Below, one piece after another: positions 1,040-19,192 of a stretch of 64,000 nt of DNA (position 1 is its first letter; each line of letters begins with the position of its first letter). Where the stretch lies: assembly GCA_041664165.1 (NCBI GenBank), contig JBAYLH010000001.1:73469-137468 (forward strand), read 5' to 3'. The DNA is from Candidatus Buchananbacteria bacterium. GTDB lineage: Bacteria > Patescibacteriota > Patescibacteriia > Buchananbacterales > UBA6539. The notes beneath the pieces are model-generated. The model was given only the letters and a program-made list of their open reading frames with translations. It had not been told where the DNA came from and did not search any database. A program made the translations under genes and the position numbers.

Positions 1040-3148
1040 TTATTTTCTAACTTTTGTATCTTTGGTTTTTATCTGTTCGGCAACGTTATTAGGCACCTCG
1101 GCATAATGGTCAAATTCCATATTGTAGGAAGCGCGGCCTTGAGTCATTGACCGGATTTCCGTGGCATAACCGAACATTTCGGCTAACGGCACTTGGGCGT
1201 CAATTACTTTCGTTTGTCCCCGATCCCGCATTTCGTCAATTTGACCGCGTTTGGAATTAATATTACCAATAATATCGCCCATATATTGTTCCGGAGTAAT
1301 CACTTCAACTCTCATAATCGGCTCAAGTAAAATCGGACTGGCGCGCCTGGCCGCTTCCTGAAAAGCCATCGAACCGGCAATTTTGAAAGCCGCTTCCGAA
1401 GAGTCAACTTCATGAAAAGACCCGTCGTAAACCGTGGCTTCAATGTCAATAATCGTATAACCGGCAACCACTCCCCTGTCCAACGCTTCTTTGATGCCTT
1501 TTTGAATCGCCGGGATATATTCTCTCGGGATCAGTCCGCCTTTAATTTCATCGTTAAAGACAAAGCCTTCGCCGCGAGCCCGAGGCGCCACTCTAATCCA
1601 GCAATGGCCGTATTGGCCGCGGCCGCCGGACTGCCGGATGTATTTGCCTTCGGCTTCAGCCGTGCCTTTGATCGTTTCTTTGTAAGCCACTTGCGGCCGG
1701 CCGACATTGGCTTCCACTTTGAATTCCCGCTTCATTCTTTCGACTAAAACTTCCAAATGAAGTTCGCCCATACCGGCAATAATCGTCTGCATGGTTTCTT
1801 CGTCGCCGTGAACTTTAAAGGTCGGGTCTTCTTCGGCCAATTTAGCCAAAGCCATACCCATTTTTTCCTGGTCGGCTTTGGTTTTCGGCTCAATCGCCAC
1901 AGAAATAACCGTTTCCGGAAAGACAATTGATTCCAAAACAATCGGATGATTTTCGTCGCATAAAGTATGGCCGGTAAAGGTACTTTTTAAACCGACGGCG
2001 GCGGCGATTTCGCCGGCAAAGACTTCTTTGACTTCTTCCCGGTGATTGGCGTGCATCCTAACGATTCGGCCGATTCTTTCTTTGTTGCCGTTTGAAGAGT
2101 TTATAATATACGAACCGGCGCTTAAAGTACCGGCATAAACGCGAAAAAAACAAAGTTTGCCGACAAACGGATCGGCGGCGATTTTAAAAGCTAAAGCGGT
2201 AAAAGGCTGGTCATCGGCCGCTGAACGAACTTCTTCGGTTTCTTTATTTTTGGGATGAAAACCTTTAACCGGCGGGATGTCTAACGGGCTGGGCAAAAAA
2301 TCGCAGACCGCGTCCAAAAGATATTGAACGCCTTTATTTTTCAAAGCGGAACCGCACAAAACCGGCATAATTTCGTTATTGATCGTCGCTTTTCTCAAAA
2401 CTTTTTTCAAATCGGCTAAAGCAATCGCCTCGCCGTTTAAATATTTGTTTAATAAATTTTCATCATGCTGGACAATGGCTTCGATTAATTCATGGCGGTA
2501 TTTTTCCGCCAACTCTTTCAAATCTGCCGGAATTTCCGATTCTTCCATGTCTTTGCCCAAATCGTCTTTGTAAATAAAGGCTTTTTCGACCAACAAATCA
2601 ACAATGCCACTGAAGCCGCCTTCAGTGCCGATCGGCAGCTGAATCGGATAAGCGTTTTTGGTTAGCCTTTCTCTAATACTATCTAGATCACTGTAGAAAT
2701 CGGCACCGGTGCGGTCGAGTTTATTAATAAAACCAAGCAATGGCACCCGAAATTTTTCCGCCTGGTGATAAACGGTTTCGGACTGCGGCTCAACGCCGGC
2801 CACGCCATCAAAAACCACTACCCCGCCGTCCAAAACCCGCAACGAACGCTGAACTTCGGCGGTAAAATCAATATGACCGGGAGTATCGATTAAATTGAGC
2901 CGGCAGGCATTTTCTTCTTCGCCTCGTGGCGCCCAAAAACAGGTCGTCGCGGCGGAAGTAATCGTAATGCCTCTTTCCCGTTCCTGCTCCATCCAGTCCA
3001 TTTCGGCTTCGCCTTCGTGAACTTCGCCGATTTTATGTTTTTTGCCGGTATAAAACAAAATTCGCTCAGATACAGTGGTTTTTCCCGCGTCAATGTGAGC
3101 GATAATTCCGATATTTCTAGTTTTTTCTAAAGAAGATTCTCTTGGCAT
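1040..3148 (-). CDS. fusA: Elongation factor G
   Basis: 702 aa. [10 protein letters not shown]-loop, DTPGHIDF, and the full EF-G domain order are present. Confidence 0.95.
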
Positions 3149-3287
3149 AAAAAATTTAAATTCTAATTTCTAATTTCAAAATTCGAAATAAATTACAAAC
3201 TATAAATTCTAATTTTCCAGATATTTTAAAATTTATAATTTAATAAATTGGAATTTGTTTAGAATTTCGAGTTTCGGGCTTCGAATT

Positions 3288-3752
3288 TTATCTAATGAAA
3301 TGCGCAAAAGCCCGGTTGGCTTCGGCCATTTTGTAAGTATCTTGGCGTTTTTTAATCGCTGCCCCTTCCCGGTTATAAGCGGCCATGAATTCTTCCGCTA
3401 ATTTTTGGCTCATCGGCATGCCTTTTTTCGCCTTGGCCGCGGTGATAATCCAGCGATAAGCTAAGGCTTTCCGGCGAGAGGGAGGCACCGGCACGGGAAT
3501 TTGATAATTACCGCCGCCGATTCTTTTTGATCTGACTTCGACTTCCGGACCAACGTTTTTAATCGCTCCGTCAAAAATTTCTAACGGGTCTTTATTGGTT
3601 TTTTCTTTAATAAAATCAAAGCAATCATAAACTATGCGCTGGGCAGTGGCTTTTTTGCCCCGTTCCATGATTTGGGTGATAAATTTAGCAATATTAACGC
3701 TTTGATATCTAGGATCAGGGATAATTTCTCGTTTTGGAGTCTTGCCTCGCAT
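3288..3752 (-). CDS. rpsG: 30S ribosomal protein S7
   Basis: 154 aa with typical S7 sequence and the expected str-operon position. Confidence 0.95.
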   Translation of the reverse strand: MRGKTPKREIIPDPRYQSVNIAKFITQIMERGKKATAQRIVYDCFDFIKEKTNKDPLEIFDGAIKNVGPEVEVRSKRIGGGNYQIPVPVPPSRRKALAYRWIITAAKAKKGMPMSQKLAEEFMAAYNREGAAIKKRQDTYKMAEANRAFAHFIR

Positions 3753-6100: not shown

Positions 6101-6177
6101 TCGGGGTATAGCGAAGTTGGCTATCGCGCATGCATGGGGTGCATGAGACCGCGGGTTCGAGTCCCGCTACCCCGACC
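6101..6177 (+). tRNA. tRNA-Pro (anticodon GGG), CCA encoded
   Basis: Hand-folded cloverleaf. The acceptor stem CGGGGTA/TACCCCG and the D arm GCGA-AGTTGGCTA-TCGC are present. The anticodon arm is CATGC-AT GGG GT-GCATG and the T arm is GCGGG-TTCGAGT-CCCGC. The discriminator is A, followed by CCA. Confidence 0.85.
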
Positions 6178-6353: not shown

Positions 6354-7388
6354 TTAGGCTGCCCGGCCGATAGCATTGGCTACCGCTTTGACCTTGATCA
6401 TCAGCCCGGCAAACTGCTGAGGATTCAACGACTGGGCGCCGTCACAGAGAGCCGAGTCTGGATCGGGATGGACTTCGATTAACAAACCATCCGCACCAGC
6501 AGCCACTGCGGCTAAAGCAATATCTGGCACCAAATCGCGATTGCCGGCGGTGTGCGACGGATCAAATATCACCGGATGATGGGTCAATCCTTTAACAACC
6601 GGAATCGCATCGATGTCCGCGGAATTGCGAGTATGGCCATTATCGAAAGTACGGATGCCGCGAGCGCAAAGAATCACCCGCTGATTACCTTCAGAAACGA
6701 TGTACTCAGCGGCTTGGAGCCACTCATCAATTGTAGCAGCCATCCCCCGCTTAAGAATCACCGGCTTATCAATTCTACCCACCGCCCTCAGCAGCCCGAA
6801 ATTTTGCATATTGCGAGTACCAATCTGCAAAATATCAGCATGCTCGGCAACTAAAGCCACATTTTCCAACGACGTCACCTCCGTCACAATCGGCAAACCG
6901 GTTTCCTGGCGCGCTTGGGCTAAAAACCGTAAGCCCCTTTCTTCTAACCCCTGAAAGAGATGGGGCGAGGTCCGCGGCTTATAGGCGCCACCACGCAAAA
7001 CCACGGCGCCGGCTTGTTTAACGGCGTTCGCTGAAGCCGTAATTTGTTCCAATGACTCAACCGCACAAGGACCGGCCATCACTACCAGCGGCTGATTGCC
7101 ACCAATAGAAATACCATTAATCTGTACAGTGAATTCATCCGGATGAGCTTGGCGAGCAGTTAGCCGAAACGGCGTTTTGGCAAGTTCAACATCAGTCACA
7201 CCAGGCAAGCTCAGAAAAAAATCTTTGAGCCGAAGCTTTTGTTCATGAGAAACTGTACCCAGGCAATTGACAACGCTGACTTCGGTGCCAGCGGTTACGA
7301 TTGCCTTGTTGAACCCGGCGGCCAAAACTTCAGCTTGGACCCGCTTGACATGATCTGACGTCGCGTTTGGACGCATGCAAACAAACAT
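6354..7388 (-). CDS. 3-deoxy-7-phosphoheptulonate (DAHP) synthase, class I-beta type, with N-terminal regulatory domain
   Basis: 344 aa. The GPCAVES motif and the KDO8P/DAHP synthase TIM-barrel core ([22 protein letters not shown]) are present, with an N-terminal extension of about 80 aa. Confidence 0.85.
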
Positions 7389-11810: not shown

Positions 11811-12458
11811 TCAAGCTACAGTCGTAGCGCCAATGGCAATCGTTGCAAAATCGTTAAGATCGGGCGTAGCCCAGTCAACCCAGCTTTTACAGCAACTGAC
11901 CGGAAAATCGACAATGATAATCCCGGCCTCAGGATCAACGCGCAAGGCAATCCGATGGTCAGTGGTAATACCACGAAACTGGCAATACCACTCGGGCCAA
12001 TCTTGCAGTTTGACGACATCTCTGCACCAGAAATAACCCCAGCCAAAGTCAGGATACTTACCCTCCGGGTCTTGGCGCTGATAGGCAAAGATCGCAGCAA
12101 TGGCTTCAACGGCCGAAATCGGCTGAAAATTCTCCGGCAGCTGCTCGGCCTGCTGGTCAAAGGTCTGACCGTGAACTTTGCCGCTATCGGCAACGGCCAA
12201 AAAATGACACTGACTAACTGGCGACTGGCGCAAAAATGCCATCTGCCTGTAGCGGCCAAAAAGCGGATGATCCCGAAACTGGCACTCGTTTAGCCACCGT
12301 GGTCGCGAGCCAAAACCCCGCGTCCAACCGGCAATGGAATCCGGTTCACCAACGACTGGCTGAGCCTCAATTGTGACAAAATCTTCACTTGCCAGCCTGC
12401 CAGCGGCCAGCGGCGTATGACCAGTGATCCCCTTGGCTGATTCCAACAATGCTCCCAT
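11811..12458 (-). CDS. Hypothetical protein (215 aa, Trp/Cys-rich)
   Basis: GAAGGAGGG SD upstream and GC-rich codon usage that differs from the flanking genes. No family recognised. Confidence 0.5.
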   Translation of the reverse strand: MGALLESAKGITGHTPLAAGRLASEDFVTIEAQPVVGEPDSIAGWTRGFGSRPRWLNECQFRDHPLFGRYRQMAFLRQSPVSQCHFLAVADSGKVHGQTFDQQAEQLPENFQPISAVEAIAAIFAYQRQDPEGKYPDFGWGYFWCRDVVKLQDWPEWYCQFRGITTDHRIALRVDPEAGIIIVDFPVSCCKSWVDWATPDLNDFATIAIGATTVA

Positions 12459-12704
12459 CGCTTTTGACCCTCCTTCTAATTACGGCCAATCTCCAGACTT
12501 AATAATGACAATGAACCAAAAAACAAAAACTAGTCATTTTAGACTAGGTAATTGCTGCTAATTGCTATTGTTTAAGCCAAACTACCCAGTCTTTTGACCA
12601 GCTACCAATACGGTTCTGCCGTCTAAAATTTGGCAAGCTATAGATTTCATAAATCCAGTTTAACAGACTTAAAAAATATGTCAAACCGACCACTAAAAAC
12701 CTTA

Positions 12705-15031: not shown

Positions 15032-15922
15032 TTATAGCAGATTTCTGATTTTTTTCAAGGGCGTAATTTTTTCAAAATAAAACTGCTGGCCGGTGCTGTA
15101 AAAATATAAATCGCCGTCAAAATCGGTTCGAAAAATTTTCGCGCCAATCGACTGCAGTTCATCAATGGTTTTTTGCTGGGGCAAGCCAAATTTATTATCC
15201 AGGCCGCAAGGAATGACGGCATAAATTGGCTTTACCGCCTGCAAAAATAACGGGTTATTGGCATTGCCCGAGCCATGATGGCCGACTTTTAAAATTTCCG
15301 CCCGCAAGTCAAGATTTTCTCTGACTAAGTCTTCTTCAATTTCCAAATCCCCCGGCAAAAGAACCGCGGTTTGGCCGTAAACCAACTTCAAAACTATTGA
15401 GCTGTCATTTAAATTTTTAATTTTCTCCGTTTTTAAGCTGGTCTCGGGAAATAAAATAAAAAAATTTGTCTTGCTGCCCAATGGCATAATTCCCCGCCGG
15501 TTTAAAATTTCAATTTCAATCTTATTTTGCCGAGCCAAATTGAGAAATAGCTGATACTCAAAAAGCTGGCTTGTAACATCGGTGATTAAAATTTTTTTGA
15601 CTTGGTATCTTTTTAAAACTTCAATCAAACCGACAACATGATCGGCGTGCGGATGGGTTAAAACCATTAGATCAATCTTGCGGTCATAAAAGGGCAAATA
15701 TTTACCCAATCCGTAAATCACCTCGTTATCCGGCCCGCCGTCCACCAAGATATTATGGCGATCCGGGGTGATAATTAAAGTGGCGTCGCCTTGGCCAACC
15801 GCCAAAAAATAAACTGCCAAATTTCTCGGCTGAAGCGCCAAAAATAAAAAAACTGCCAAAATAACAATGCCGGCGATAACTGCCAGATAAAACTTTAAAA
15901 TTCTGTTTTTAATCTTAGACAT
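15032..15922 (-). CDS. ComEC-type metallo-beta-lactamase domain protein (C-terminal module of ComEC as a separate ORF)
   Basis: HPHADHVVG MBL motif and an N-terminal TM anchor. Its start overlaps the stop of the upstream ComEC N-terminal ORF by 4 nt. Confidence 0.75.
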   Translation of the reverse strand: MSKIKNRILKFYLAVIAGIVILAVFLFLALQPRNLAVYFLAVGQGDATLIITPDRHNILVDGGPDNEVIYGLGKYLPFYDRKIDLMVLTHPHADHVVGLIEVLKRYQVKKILITDVTSQLFEYQLFLNLARQNKIEIEILNRRGIMPLGSKTNFFILFPETSLKTEKIKNLNDSSIVLKLVYGQTAVLLPGDLEIEEDLVRENLDLRAEILKVGHHGSGNANNPLFLQAVKPIYAVIPCGLDNKFGLPQQKTIDELQSIGAKIFRTDFDGDLYFYSTGQQFYFEKITPLKKIRNLL

Positions 15923-15925
15923 AAA

Positions 15926-17314
15926 TTATAGGCTAATGGCGGCAAAAGGGATGGCGGCAAAAAATTCCACGACTTTAATTAAATAAGTTAAGCCCAGCCA
16001 AAGCGGGAAAAACAGCGCCGAATAGGAAAAAAATAAGCTTAAAAATAAAACCACAAAACCGGCAATGGTTAAAAACGGCAAAAGTGCTACCACGAATAAA
16101 TTAGTAATCGGGCCAATCAATGACAACCGGCCGAAGTTATAAATAATCAAAGGCAAAGTCGACAGCTGAGCCGCTAAAGTCATTTGCAGCGATTCTTTAA
16201 CTCCCAAAAAATTGGAAAACTTAGAAAACCTATTTTCTAAAAGCGGCAGAAAATAAATCAGACCCAAGACCGCTAAAAATGACAGCTGAAAACCGACGTC
16301 ATCGCGCAAAATTTTGGGATTAATAAAAATCATCGCGGCGGCGGTAAAAATCAAGGCGTTAGCTGCTCGGTTCAGCCGACCCAAATGACGAGCCAGCAGC
16401 GCCAAATAACCCATAATCGCCGCCCGCACCGCTGAGGCCGGCGCCCCGACCAAAATAATATAAAAAATCAGGGCAAAGGTAATCAGCCAAAACGCTTTTT
16501 TCCGAGAAATATAAAAATTCAAAAGTAAGTCAAGCAGCAAGGCGGAAATAATCGTGATATTCATGCCGGAAATCGCGATTAGATGCGTCGTAGCGGTGAT
16601 ATTGAATTTATCCATCAAGGCCTGGGGTAATCCCCTTCTGGCGCCTAAAATTATGGCAGCAAACAAGCTGGCCTGGGGTTCGGGCAAATTGGAATTAATG
16701 ATTTGCAGCAGTTTATTTTTGAAACCAAAAATCTCAGTTAAAAGCCAGTCGCCATTGCCGGCGGCGATTAATTTTATTTTAGGATAAATACATTCGCTAT
16801 AGATACCGTCTTTGGCTAAATAGCGGTCATAGGCAAAATCAGCAAAGCTCTGGGGCGCGGACAAGCGGCAGCTGACCGTCACTAAATCGCCATATTGATA
16901 TTGGGGATACAAATTGGCCGTTACCAAAACTTGGCCGGAAATTTTTGAGTTGCCACTAATTTTTGCTATTTCCAAAACAGAAATTATCAATCTGATCCGG
17001 TTAGTCCTAATATCCGGCTCTTCGGTAACTACTCCGGTAAAATCAATTTTCTGGCTATTATAAAACCAAATTTTTGTTTCATTAGTCACTGGCAAAGACA
17101 GCTGGTAACGGAAAATACCAAAAATAAAAATGATGCCACCGATCAGAATCCACCGATAAAATTGCCTGGGCCAAAGCAACGACAACAAGATTAAAAAAAA
17201 GAGAATAAATAAACCCAGATAAAAATAATCAAAAAAAACAAACGAGGCTAAGCCAACCCCGGCAATAAAACAAAGAAGAAAATAACAAAAAATTTTAGAC
17301 TGGCTATTAAACAT
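15926..17314 (-). CDS. comEC: ComEC/Rec2 N-terminal membrane module (DUF4131 plus Competence domain)
   Basis: 462 aa polytopic membrane protein whose competence-domain segment includes a conserved HLIAISGMN-like motif. Confidence 0.75.
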   Translation of the reverse strand: MFNSQSKIFCYFLLCFIAGVGLASFVFFDYFYLGLFILFFLILLSLLWPRQFYRWILIGGIIFIFGIFRYQLSLPVTNETKIWFYNSQKIDFTGVVTEEPDIRTNRIRLIISVLEIAKISGNSKISGQVLVTANLYPQYQYGDLVTVSCRLSAPQSFADFAYDRYLAKDGIYSECIYPKIKLIAAGNGDWLLTEIFGFKNKLLQIINSNLPEPQASLFAAIILGARRGLPQALMDKFNITATTHLIAISGMNITIISALLLDLLLNFYISRKKAFWLITFALIFYIILVGAPASAVRAAIMGYLALLARHLGRLNRAANALIFTAAAMIFINPKILRDDVGFQLSFLAVLGLIYFLPLLENRFSKFSNFLGVKESLQMTLAAQLSTLPLIIYNFGRLSLIGPITNLFVVALLPFLTIAGFVVLFLSLFFSYSALFFPLWLGLTYLIKVVEFFAAIPFAAISL

Positions 17315-17405
17315 GGTAATGGGACACGGATCAAATAAATTAAACGGATTTGCACGAATCTAATCCGTGCCAATCTATCTCATCCGTGTTTATCCGCGTT
17401 CTATT
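17314..17405. repeat. 92-bp perfect direct repeat, copy 1 (abuts the comEC start codon; encodes the C-terminal 22 aa of the GxxExxY ORF)
   Basis: It is identical, by direct comparison of the two sequences, to 17783..17874. It contains CACGGAT/ATCCGTG sub-repeats. Confidence 0.9.
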
Positions 17406-17780
17406 ATTTTTTATTTTATTATCATAAATTTTCCTTTTAAACTGCGGCTGCTTGCCGAAGTTAAACAACAATCCTACTTCAAACTCGGTTGCTTTTAAAT
17501 AATTCAATAACTGGGCTTCATGTTCTGGGCATAAATTTTCAGCGGCTTTCAGCTCTAAAATAATTTTATCTCCTGCGACAATATCGGCAAAATAATCACC
17601 TACTAAATTCTCATGATAATAAACCTTGATGGGAACCTGCCTACGACATAATAGACCTAGTCTGAATAATTCAATTGCCATTGCATTTTCATAAACTTTT
17701 TCTAGAAATCCATAGCCCAATTCATTATAAACATTGTAGAATGCTCTGATTATTAATTCTGATTCTTGTTCATATTTCAT
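17340..17780 (-). CDS. GxxExxY-family protein (PD-(D/E)XK nuclease-like)
   Basis: 146 aa. The motifs GYGFLEKVYENA and EAQLLNYLKATEFEVGLLFNFG fit the GxxExxY family. Confidence 0.7.
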   Translation of the reverse strand: MKYEQESELIIRAFYNVYNELGYGFLEKVYENAMAIELFRLGLLCRRQVPIKVYYHENLVGDYFADIVAGDKIILELKAAENLCPEHEAQLLNYLKATEFEVGLLFNFGKQPQFKRKIYDNKIKNNRTRINTDEIDWHGLDSCKSV

Positions 17781-17782
17781 AT

Positions 17783-17874
17783 TGGTAATGGGACACGGAT
17801 CAAATAAATTAAACGGATTTGCACGAATCTAATCCGTGCCAATCTATCTCATCCGTGTTTATCCGCGTTCTATT
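17783..17874. repeat. 92-bp perfect direct repeat, copy 2 (immediately upstream of the GxxExxY start)
   Basis: Identical to 17314..17405. Confidence 0.9.
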
Positions 17875-17891
17875 TAATTTAATAATAAAAA

Positions 17892-17915
17892 CGCACTTTT
17901 GATGCGCTATGTTGA
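17892..17915 (-). terminator. Terminator after ahcY
   Basis: Minus-sense AGCGCA-ucaaaag-UGCGUU followed by UUUAUUAUU. Confidence 0.5.
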
Positions 17916-17932: not shown

Positions 17933-19192
17933 TTAAGTGCCGACTTCCCAGCTCGCCAGATACTTTTTCTGTTCTTTTGTTAACTTATCAATATCGACAC
18001 CGGCTGATTTCAATTTCGCCGCCGCAATCCAATTTTCAATTGCTTCCGGAATATAATAAACTTTATTTTCCAGCTTCTGATAATTTTTAACTACGTATTC
18101 AGTGGCCAAAGCCTGAGTAGCAAAACTCATATCCATTACTGACGCCGGGTGGCCTTCGGCCGCGGCCAGATTAATCAAGCGGCCTTCGCCTAACAAATAA
18201 ACTCTCTTGCTGCCGCTCAAAGTATATTCATCGACAAAATTTCGGACATTCTTTTTTATTTTCTTGGCCATTTTTTTCAAGGCCACAATATCAATTTCGA
18301 CGTCAAAATGGCCGGAGTTGCAGACCATCGCGCCGTCTTTCATTTTAGCAAAATGTTCTTTCCTAATAACCCGGATATCACCGGTTAAAGTGCAAAATAA
18401 ATCACCAATGGCGGCGGCTTTACTCATCGGCAAAACGCGAAAACCGTCCATCATTGCTTCAATGGCCTTAATCGGATCAACTTCGGTAACAATAACATTG
18501 GCACCCATGCCGCGCGCCCGGCTGGCAAAACCCCGGCCGCACCAGCCGTAGCCGGCCACGACCACATTTTTGCCGGCGACTAAGATGTCAGTCGCCCGGA
18601 TAATTCCGTCTAAAGTTGATTGGCCTGTGCCATAACGGTTATCAAATAAATTTTTTGTTTTGGCGTCATTAACGGCGACAATCGGCACCAAAAGTTTGCC
18701 CGATCGTTCTAAAGCTTTAAGCCGAATCACACCCGTCGTCGTTTCTTCCATTGAACCTTTAACCTTGGCGGCCTGATTTTTATATTTGGTGTGAAGCAAC
18801 GACAATAAATCCGCGCCGTCGTCCATAGTCACTTCCGGCTGATGTTTAATCGCCGCTACCAGATTGCCATAATAACTTTCTTTATCTTCGCCGCATTTGG
18901 CAAAAACTGAAATACCATATTCTTTAACCAAAGCCGCCGCCACGTCATCTTGGGTTGATAAAGGATTTGACGCCACTAAAACCACGTCAGCCCCGCCGGC
19001 TTTCAGCGTTCGGACTAAATTAGCGGTTTCACAGGTTACGTGAAGGCAGCAAGAAACTTTTAAACCCTTAAGCGGCTTATTTTTAGCAAACCGTTTTTTA
19101 ATTTCACCTAAAACCGGCATATCGTGTTCCGCCCATTCAATCCGTTTTTTGCCTTCAGGAGCTAGTTTTATATTTTTGACGTCGTATTTCAT
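17933..19192 (-). CDS. ahcY: Adenosylhomocysteinase
   Basis: 419 aa with the SAHH NAD-binding and catalytic regions (HVTCETANL..., GYGWCGRG-like Rossmann motif). Confidence 0.9.

Follow-up and report, generated by a model that had tools for sequence, protein, structure and literature searches.

Identical palindromic modules enclose a GxxExxY nuclease-family gene in a variable ahcY-comEC slot of a Candidatus Buchananbacteria bacterium

In a 64,000-nucleotide stretch of a metagenome-assembled genome of Candidatus Buchananbacteria, an uncultured member of the Patescibacteria (assembly GCA_041664165.1, contig JBAYLH010000001.1, positions 73,469 to 137,468; hereafter, the window), a small gene of the GxxExxY nuclease family lies between ahcY and comEC and is bracketed by two 92-nt direct repeats. 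An earlier, sequence-only reading of this locus had called the two copies identical, and they are: 17314-17405 and 17783-17874 match exactly and are the sole two matches in the window with up to 3 mismatches allowed. The chance expectation for a 92-nt repeat is none (100 shuffles); identity ends sharply on both sides, and a looser 98-nt alignment requires a 2-nt indel. We think that the gene is probably part of a small, horizontally acquired cassette, similar to the intervening sequences (IVSs) of 23S rRNA genes, in a variable slot between ahcY and comEC, and that the repeats are two copies of its end module, which we call LR because it joins a left (L) and a right (R) arm. The features of the locus are as follows (ORF, open reading frame).

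17933..19192, minus strand: ahcY, encoding S-adenosylhomocysteine hydrolase (Pfam AdoHcyase and AdoHcyase_NAD); it precedes the slot in six relatives too
17880..17908, minus strand: intrinsic terminator of ahcY with a lineage-typical CAACATAGCGC box; stem 17908..17890 plus a T run
17783..17874, minus strand: LR copy 2, 5′ of the GxxExxY gene; L arm 17874..17829, R arm 17828..17787, ACCA 17786..17783
17340..17780, minus strand: GxxExxY/PDDEXK_3 ORF of 146 aa, with profile matches to PF13366 and TIGR04256
17314..17405, minus strand: LR copy 1, 3′ of the GxxExxY gene; L arm 17405..17360, R arm 17359..17318, ACCA 17317..17314
15926..17314, minus strand: comEC (DUF4131 and Competence domains), with homologues that align along its whole length (100%)

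Read in gene orientation, the order is ahcY, terminator, LR copy 2, 2 nt, GxxExxY ORF, LR copy 1, and comEC, all on the minus strand. The cassette starts a few bases past the ahcY terminator, whose CAACATAGCGC box and hairpin also follow ahcY in L082, L084, L086, L088, and L114 (L numbers designate compared loci). As the sequence-only reading had it, copy 2 stops 2 nt ahead of the GxxExxY ATG, and copy 1 contains the final 22 codons of the ORF and abuts comEC, ending on the A of the comEC ATG. The sequences surrounding the copies are AAATTA-unit-ATATG and AAAATA-unit-TGTTT. The native comEC start (MFN...) is kept, and comEC of L082 and L084 likewise begins ATGTTTAAT. The base composition of the cassette gene is foreign: its GC content is 33.9%, versus a window mean of 45%, placing it at the 3rd percentile of equal-sized windows. 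The earlier suggestion of a small inserted gene is supported, and the gene is probably selfish.

In gene orientation, the L arm reads AATAGAAC GCGGAT aaa CACGGAT gag ATAGAT tgg CACGGAT tag, and the R arm follows as ATTCGTG caa ATCCGT tta ATTTAT ttg ATCCGTG TCCCATT, after which ACCA completes the unit. The L arm consists of the AATAGAAC terminus and four tandem iterons ending in GAT, with a period of 9 to 10 nt; the R arm has the same build reversed and ends in the GTCCCATT terminus, so that the fused arms form an imperfect palindrome whose termini match the repeat boundaries exactly. Because LR is an imperfect palindrome, its two direct copies double as inverted repeats, and the gene is enclosed by complementary arms; the inverted-repeat score of the flanks across the gene is 30, versus a control maximum of 26. 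CACGGAT/ATCCGTG subrepeats occur in both orientations, as had been noticed earlier, and 6 of their 10 occurrences in the window fall within the two copies. Computed folding is strong for RNA of either strand of the copy 1 stretch (17305-17415; sense, −35.1 kcal/mol, z = −5.7; antisense, −30.2 kcal/mol, z = −4.9) and for sense RNA of the copy 2 stretch (17774-17890; −31.0 kcal/mol, z = −4.2). Rfam at gathering thresholds yielded no family for the repeat, the sole match in the whole window being a tRNA (6102-6175), and at E ≤10 the repeat region gave merely chance matches to generic hairpin models.

We compared 80 GxxExxY loci from Bacteroidota, Ignavibacteriota, Chloroflexota, Acidobacteriota, Proteobacteria, Patescibacteria, and others, and found that modules of like build adjoin GxxExxY genes at ∼80 loci of many phyla, beside unrelated neighbors (ruvB, permeases, and others). 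In the 150 nt upstream of the gene, CACGGAT was present for 31 of 83 genes (expectation, 0.02 per 150 nt) and ATAGAAC for 26 of 83; downstream, the reverse complements of these motifs were enriched. Inverted similarity between the upstream and downstream flanks was above the 95th percentile of the controls in 68 of 78 genes and above their maximum in 59; for flanking direct repeats, the 95th percentile was passed in 38. When 80 arms are aligned by their termini, the consensus reads AATAGAAC, and GAT recurs at +9, +18, +27, and +37. A strict arm pattern matched 104 times in 676 kb of loci and not once in shuffled sequence, and 90 of the 104 arms lie ≤300 nt from either a GxxExxY gene or a gene for a four-helix IVS protein (IVP). 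Inner iterons vary by lineage (CACGGAT, CGCGGAT, CACAGAT, CGCTGAT, TTATGAT, and ACGAAT); however, the L and R arms of one element carry a common iteron variant in 48 of 69 loci versus 21 expected, a count reached in none of 1,000 shuffles. We dropped the idea that the iterons are DnaA boxes or CsrA sites, since those of many lineages (CGCTGAT, TTATGAT, and ACGAAT) lack such cores. The module itself appears not to have been described before at the level of the family: we found no description of a flanking module of GxxExxY genes in the searchable literature, in which GxxExxY is named by just three papers.

In the commonest layout, L arm, gene, and R arm follow one another, with the L terminus 44 to 59 nt ahead of the ATG and the R terminus 49 to 63 nt past the domain end. 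In a smaller but recurring set, an R terminus stands directly 5′ of the ATG (8 loci) and/or an L terminus directly 3′ of the gene (16 loci); as at the window locus, the LR units there are complete and lie outside the gene. The order LR, gene, LR recurs in unrelated lineages, but there the copies are always diverged (70 to 94% identical), as illustrated by the flanking direct repeats of L029 (92% over 142 nt), L069 (94%, 71 nt), L016 (85%, 107 nt), L037 (83%, 174 nt), L023 (82%, 129 nt), L031 (82%, 84 nt), and L015 (77%, 117 nt). At loci with long direct repeats, the neighbors are large ordinary genes rather than further cassettes. The nearest homologues of the window protein display three layouts among them: gene, LR, ruvB in L089; L, gene, R in L092; and L, gene, LR in L095. 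On the finished plasmid pZRK30-1, an LR unit and an extra R arm lie upstream of the gene and an R arm lies downstream; the R arm closest to the gene is followed by the ribosome-binding site and start of the next gene, and so is the downstream one.

LR units also occur without a gene. A metagenome scan with the center of the LR unit as the query, covering samples other than the source, returned 16 solo LR palindromes of like build, all between ordinary ORFs, and no GxxExxY gene was found near them in the DNA examined (up to 14 to 15 kb at some loci). The solo unit of L103 is 78% identical to that of the window over 89 aligned nt. In L109, from a high-GC bacterium, a 2.5-copy tandem LR array (12270-12496; period of 90 nt, 94% matches) lies between ordinary genes, with no GxxExxY gene within the 15 kb examined around it. 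We also observed that in L030 LR units fill three consecutive intergenic spaces (1444-1537, 2880-2994, and 3358-3463) and bracket an ordinary gene of 442 aa as well as the GxxExxY gene; units are therefore not confined to the immediate flanks of a cassette gene.

The ahcY-comEC interval is itself variable. Although the nearest comEC homologues share only 56 to 63% identity, six relatives retain the order ahcY, slot, comEC, metallo-beta-lactamase, response regulator, and ndk. In L088, the slot is empty: its 66 nt comprise the terminator and 13 nt ahead of the comEC ATG. In L086/L087 and L114, it holds a gene annotated as a four-helix "23S rRNA IVS protein" (TIGR02436), around which inverted iteron arrays are found (GCTGAAT/ATTCAGC in L086; TAAGTAAAT/ATTTACTTA in L114), and small unrelated ORFs on the opposite strand occupy it in L082, L084, and L113. 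No LR-like sequence lies 5′ of comEC in any of these relatives, which argues that the repeat is not the native comEC leader.

Several further observations concern this slot. Its opposite-strand ORFs encode 104 to 136 aa (L082, 4514-4924; L084, 4523-4837; L113, 2595-2924; and L114, 2590-2928; all on the minus strand) and apparently have a higher GC content; those of L082 and L084 have no NCBIfam match and do not match each other, and the ORFs are possibly another type of small insertion. Between the ahcY stop codon and the terminator, three to five tandem repeats of 8 to 9 nt are present in L082 (4416-4450), L084 (4437-4475), L088 (4935-4962), and L114 (2041-2090); the repeats are CAGTAAATC..., AGTAAGAAA..., AAGAGNNT..., and TNAGTAAAT. 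The L114 array is the left arm of the four-helix cassette, whose right arm lies 3′ of the gene. The L082 and L084 arrays appear to be solo arms that remained, a hint that cassettes have come and gone repeatedly at the slot. L086 carries a second, divergent GxxExxY gene upstream of ahcY (2640-3180), which encodes a protein 33% identical to that of the window and has inverted arrays of a different iteron, TTGTAGA/TCTACAA (ATCTACAAAT / ATTTGTAGAT), that lack the AATAGAAC terminus.

The cassette gene encodes a full-length member of the GxxExxY family (TIGR04256/Pfam PDDEXK_3), annotated only as a protein of unknown function; by motif and predicted fold, it is a putative minimal PD-(D/E)XK nuclease with conserved catalytic residues. 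The Pfam PF13366 match scores 134 bits (cutoff, 22) and the TIGR04256 match 129.5 bits (cutoff, 35), and the PDDEXK_3 domain spans residues 5 to 116 (17768..17433). All the conserved motifs of the family are present, namely G24xxE27xxY30 and D66...E76-x-K78; in an alignment of 30 sequences, G24, E27, Y30, D66, and K78 are invariant and E76 nearly so (at least 90%). Top fold matches are minimal PD-(D/E)XK proteins (the Cas4 protein SSO0001, the archaeal Holliday-junction resolvase Hjc, and lambda-type exonucleases), with TM-scores of just 0.4 to 0.5. A sequence search of PDB found no match to the protein, nor did searches against PADLOC and PHROGs, so there is no support from these for a role in a defense system or for a phage origin. 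The AlphaFold (AF2) model is confident for residues 1 to 124 (predicted local distance difference test [pLDDT] score of >90 in the core), while residues 125 to 146 are disordered (<50). The latter are encoded by copy 1, by its L arm and the first part of its R arm; the model and the sequence together show the last 22 codons to be a read-through into the L arm, predicted to form a nonstructural tail. Among 30 aligned close homologues, 13 have C-terminal tails of the NRTRI or NTD..HG type that correspond to the L arm in frame (for example, NRTRI, NRTRMNTDATDKHG, and TRINTDDTDWVGL); NRTRI is AAT AGA ACG CGG ATA, the L-arm terminus read in frame. For annotation, this means that the odd C-terminal tails seen in many such proteins (NRTRI, NTD..HG, KSVKSV, and QRKSA) are translated arm sequence.

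The closest described relatives of the window element are the IVSs of 23S rRNA. The Coxiella IVS contains a four-helix ORF and has a 28-bp terminal inverted-repeat stem that is cut by RNase III; just 5′ of its ORF, AGAAGA is followed by three tandem GACAGAT heptamers, and the source describes both the origin and the mobility of this IVS as unclear (PMC4990558). Like the window cassette, IVSs (in Coxiella, Leptospira, and others, with an S23p ORF) consist of a small ORF enclosed by long-stem terminal inverted repeats, with tandem 7- to 10-nt repeats beside the ORF (AGAAGA-GACAGAT in Coxiella; ATAGAAC-ACAGAT-GACACAGAT here); hairpin-only versions that lack the ORF exist, and the distribution is sporadic and apparently horizontal. 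In addition, the very slot occupied in the window houses, in the relatives L086 and L114, an IVP gene with inverted iteron arrays. There are also differences. The window element lies between protein-coding genes rather than in helix 9, 25, or 45 of 23S rRNA; it carries a gene for a PD-(D/E)XK (GxxExxY) protein, where IVSs carry one for an S23p four-helix bundle; in its arms, GAT iterons of period 9 to 10 follow a conserved AATAGAAC terminus; and each of its flanks is a whole palindrome, present as two identical direct copies. Because of its location outside rRNA and its different cargo, we regard it as an IVS-like cassette and not as an IVS.

How such a cassette might move can be sketched from the build of its ends. 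The arms could serve as DNA-level recognition sites for an enzyme that copies or moves the LR module, since a conserved terminus together with iterons spaced at about one helical turn points to sequence-specific recognition of DNA. The obvious candidate is the PD-(D/E)XK nuclease that the cassette encodes, which might work on the flanks of its own gene or on LR in hairpin or cruciform shape; since four-helix cargo genes are found in comparable arms whose sequence is unrelated, a trans-acting factor is also conceivable. In transcripts, each LR would fold into a hairpin of ∼40 bp, and by analogy with IVSs, RNase III may cut this hairpin, so that the element would do no harm where it lies between genes. 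As the two copies are 100% identical here versus 70 to 94% elsewhere, they would stem from a recent copy event (either the module was duplicated or gene plus LR was inserted at an LR already in place) or have been homogenized by gene conversion. In this respect, the original suggestion of a very recent duplication or insertion holds as regards recent copying or homogenization; what does not hold is that the comEC leader was the sequence duplicated.

Several points weigh against our reading of the locus as an acquired IVS-like cassette. In a search of 5.8 billion proteins, no relative at the species level turned up, and synteny was accordingly compared at the family level; with 63% identity for the nearest comEC homologue, there is no calibration for the age of the insertion. 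Neither a transposase nor an integrase nor a target-site duplication was found, which leaves mobility to be read from distribution only. As regards a miniature inverted-repeat transposable element or an insertion sequence, LR is a palindrome with defined termini, and no direct duplication lies beside either copy. Only two LR copies are present across the 64 kb: the search for other copies of the 92-nt unit, made in the window, gave none beyond these two, and a simple scan for iteron clusters, run over the window and pZRK30-1, revealed no additional arms. The iterons of IVP-type cassettes are unrelated in sequence to those of LR, so that homology between the two kinds of arms is unproven. The order LR, gene, LR in the window is known from the assembly alone. 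As for the RNA stem, sense-strand G:T and A:C mismatches are symmetric (96 versus 105 across genes; 43 versus 45 within units) and transversions are also common in arm pairings; because of this, neither strand shows signs of having been selected for an RNA stem.

Of the alternatives, the one that survives best resembles REPIN-RAYT systems (repetitive extragenic palindrome [REP] doublets forming hairpins and REP-associated tyrosine transposases): LR palindromes would be the replicating entities, mobilized in trans by the GxxExxY nuclease as a single-copy enzyme, with units seeding beside their own enzyme. We consider this possible but rather unlikely. Both systems have one small gene for a nucleic acid enzyme between palindromes of ∼90 to 100 nt that are also found without a gene in intergenic regions, and the solo units and tandem array described above fit such a scheme, as do extra LR units 1 to 2 kb from GxxExxY genes (for example, L030, 1444-1537) and the fact that the gene is inside the units in some loci (L, gene, R) and outside them in others (LR, gene, LR). 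Conservation of the terminus and GAT iterons across phyla likewise suggests recognition by a conserved protein. However, the protein is a PD-(D/E)XK enzyme and not a Y1/HUH transposase, the arms are iteron arrays rather than single REPs, and neither the window, with just 2 copies in 64 kb, nor pZRK30-1 reveals a large dispersed population of LR. Furthermore, IVP four-helix genes, which lack a nuclease fold, occupy analogous arms, and inner iterons differ among close protein homologues.

Less probable still is an integron-like event, in which a circle of gene plus LR recombined into a resident LR before comEC through a recombinase supplied in trans. The resemblance lies in a promoterless small gene bounded by imperfect palindromic sites, readable as a circular permutation of gene plus site; the window arrangement corresponds to 1.2 turns of a 469-bp circle, L089 has the order gene, LR, next gene with the upstream arm missing, and at several loci the cassette gene and the host gene after it each have an R arm or LR directly 5′ of their start. 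Against it, no tyrosine or serine recombinase is encoded within ∼10 kb on either side, nor are there attC cores, a nearby integrase, or attI; the ATAGAAC and GTCCCATT termini do not fit the attC cores RYYYAAC and GTTRRRY. No cassette arrays were seen, neighboring and downstream genes being large housekeeping genes, and identical LRs would demand that the resident and incoming sites were identical too.

An assembly artifact or a population mixture is more unlikely again. The true chromosome would then read ahcY, LR, comEC, and the 469-bp loop of gene plus LR would come from a subpopulation or a small circle. An exact 92-nt repeat is indeed shorter than a typical read and puts a loop into a de Bruijn graph, and both public records are apparently from one sample. 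Nevertheless, the ORF continues in frame from unique sequence into copy 1, and what chiefly makes an artifact unlikely is that LR, gene, LR with diverged copies, which repeat collapse could not create, occurs in many independent assemblies and in a similar form on a finished plasmid.

The sequence-only reading had itself taken the repeats for a duplicate of the comEC 5′ region, for instance through a cassette with its own copy of a promoter or untranslated region or through capture mediated by replication slippage. A consensus promoter scan found no promoter-like hexamer pair inside the LR unit; one match (17319..17292) touches it, with the −35-like hexamer in copy 1 and the −10-like hexamer within comEC, and the region's 7 matches are not clearly above the shuffled expectation of 4.1 ± 1.9. 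That the 92 nt are comEC's own leader or promoter, duplicated by slippage or captured with the inserted gene, is thus the most improbable explanation of all: copy 1 does abut the comEC ATG, both genes do have identical upstream sequence, and the direct repeats of L015, L029, and L030 do extend toward both start codons, but the relatives lack any such sequence before comEC, the unit is a self-contained palindrome that serves as a generic GxxExxY flank in unrelated genomes with unrelated neighbors, and its boundaries coincide with element termini, which slippage at an arbitrary site would not produce.

We return, then, to the acquired IVS-like cassette, of which the window holds one more, apparently young, member of a widespread family, in a minority flank arrangement. 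A bolder proposal, which we put forward only tentatively and hold to be doubtful as a whole, is that LR and the GxxExxY nuclease constitute an undescribed class of nuclease-associated palindromic mobile elements across phyla, a non-rRNA counterpart of IVSs with autonomous and gene-less forms, in which identical flanks would mark a recently active copy and the nuclease would recognize its own arms. To our knowledge, IVSs and the linked, very abundant four-helix and GxxExxY families have had no known function or means of spread since ∼1990. A phylum-spanning end module, modules without a gene, and one slot holding differing cassettes or none provide a testable substrate for asking how such elements are mobilized and what role their proteins play. 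There is also a consequence for operons, including cas operons, in which IVP or GxxExxY genes are embedded: IVP genes within cas operons have been interpreted as functional partners (PMC3936711), whereas insertion is the simpler and more likely reading.

Some minor features of the neighborhood deserve mention. Two separate ORFs make up ComEC in this lineage, one with the Competence/DUF4131 domains and one for the metallo-beta-lactamase, and the latter is also present at the window locus (15032-17314, minus strand, for the two). Between the split ORFs, L088 (6418-7203) and L114 (4436-5212) have an unannotated opposite-strand ORF of ∼260 aa, and L086 has a 447-nt gap (6383-6830); this is a second variable slot. 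Within the 5′ part of the window comEC ORF, ∼55 nt past its start, lies a terminator-like hairpin with a T run (17243-17261, minus strand), which may be a chance occurrence or an attenuator. Finally, the box (A)TCAACATAGCGC forms the 5′ half of an intrinsic terminator hairpin followed by a T run, in the window (17880-17915, minus strand) as well as in L088 (4965-4992 and 9150-9180), L086 (4540-4570), L082 (4455-4485), L084 (4475-4505), and L114 (2118-2145). It follows differing genes (ahcY and ndk) in several related genomes of the candidate phyla radiation and has the look of a terminator stereotyped throughout the lineage or of a small repeat element.

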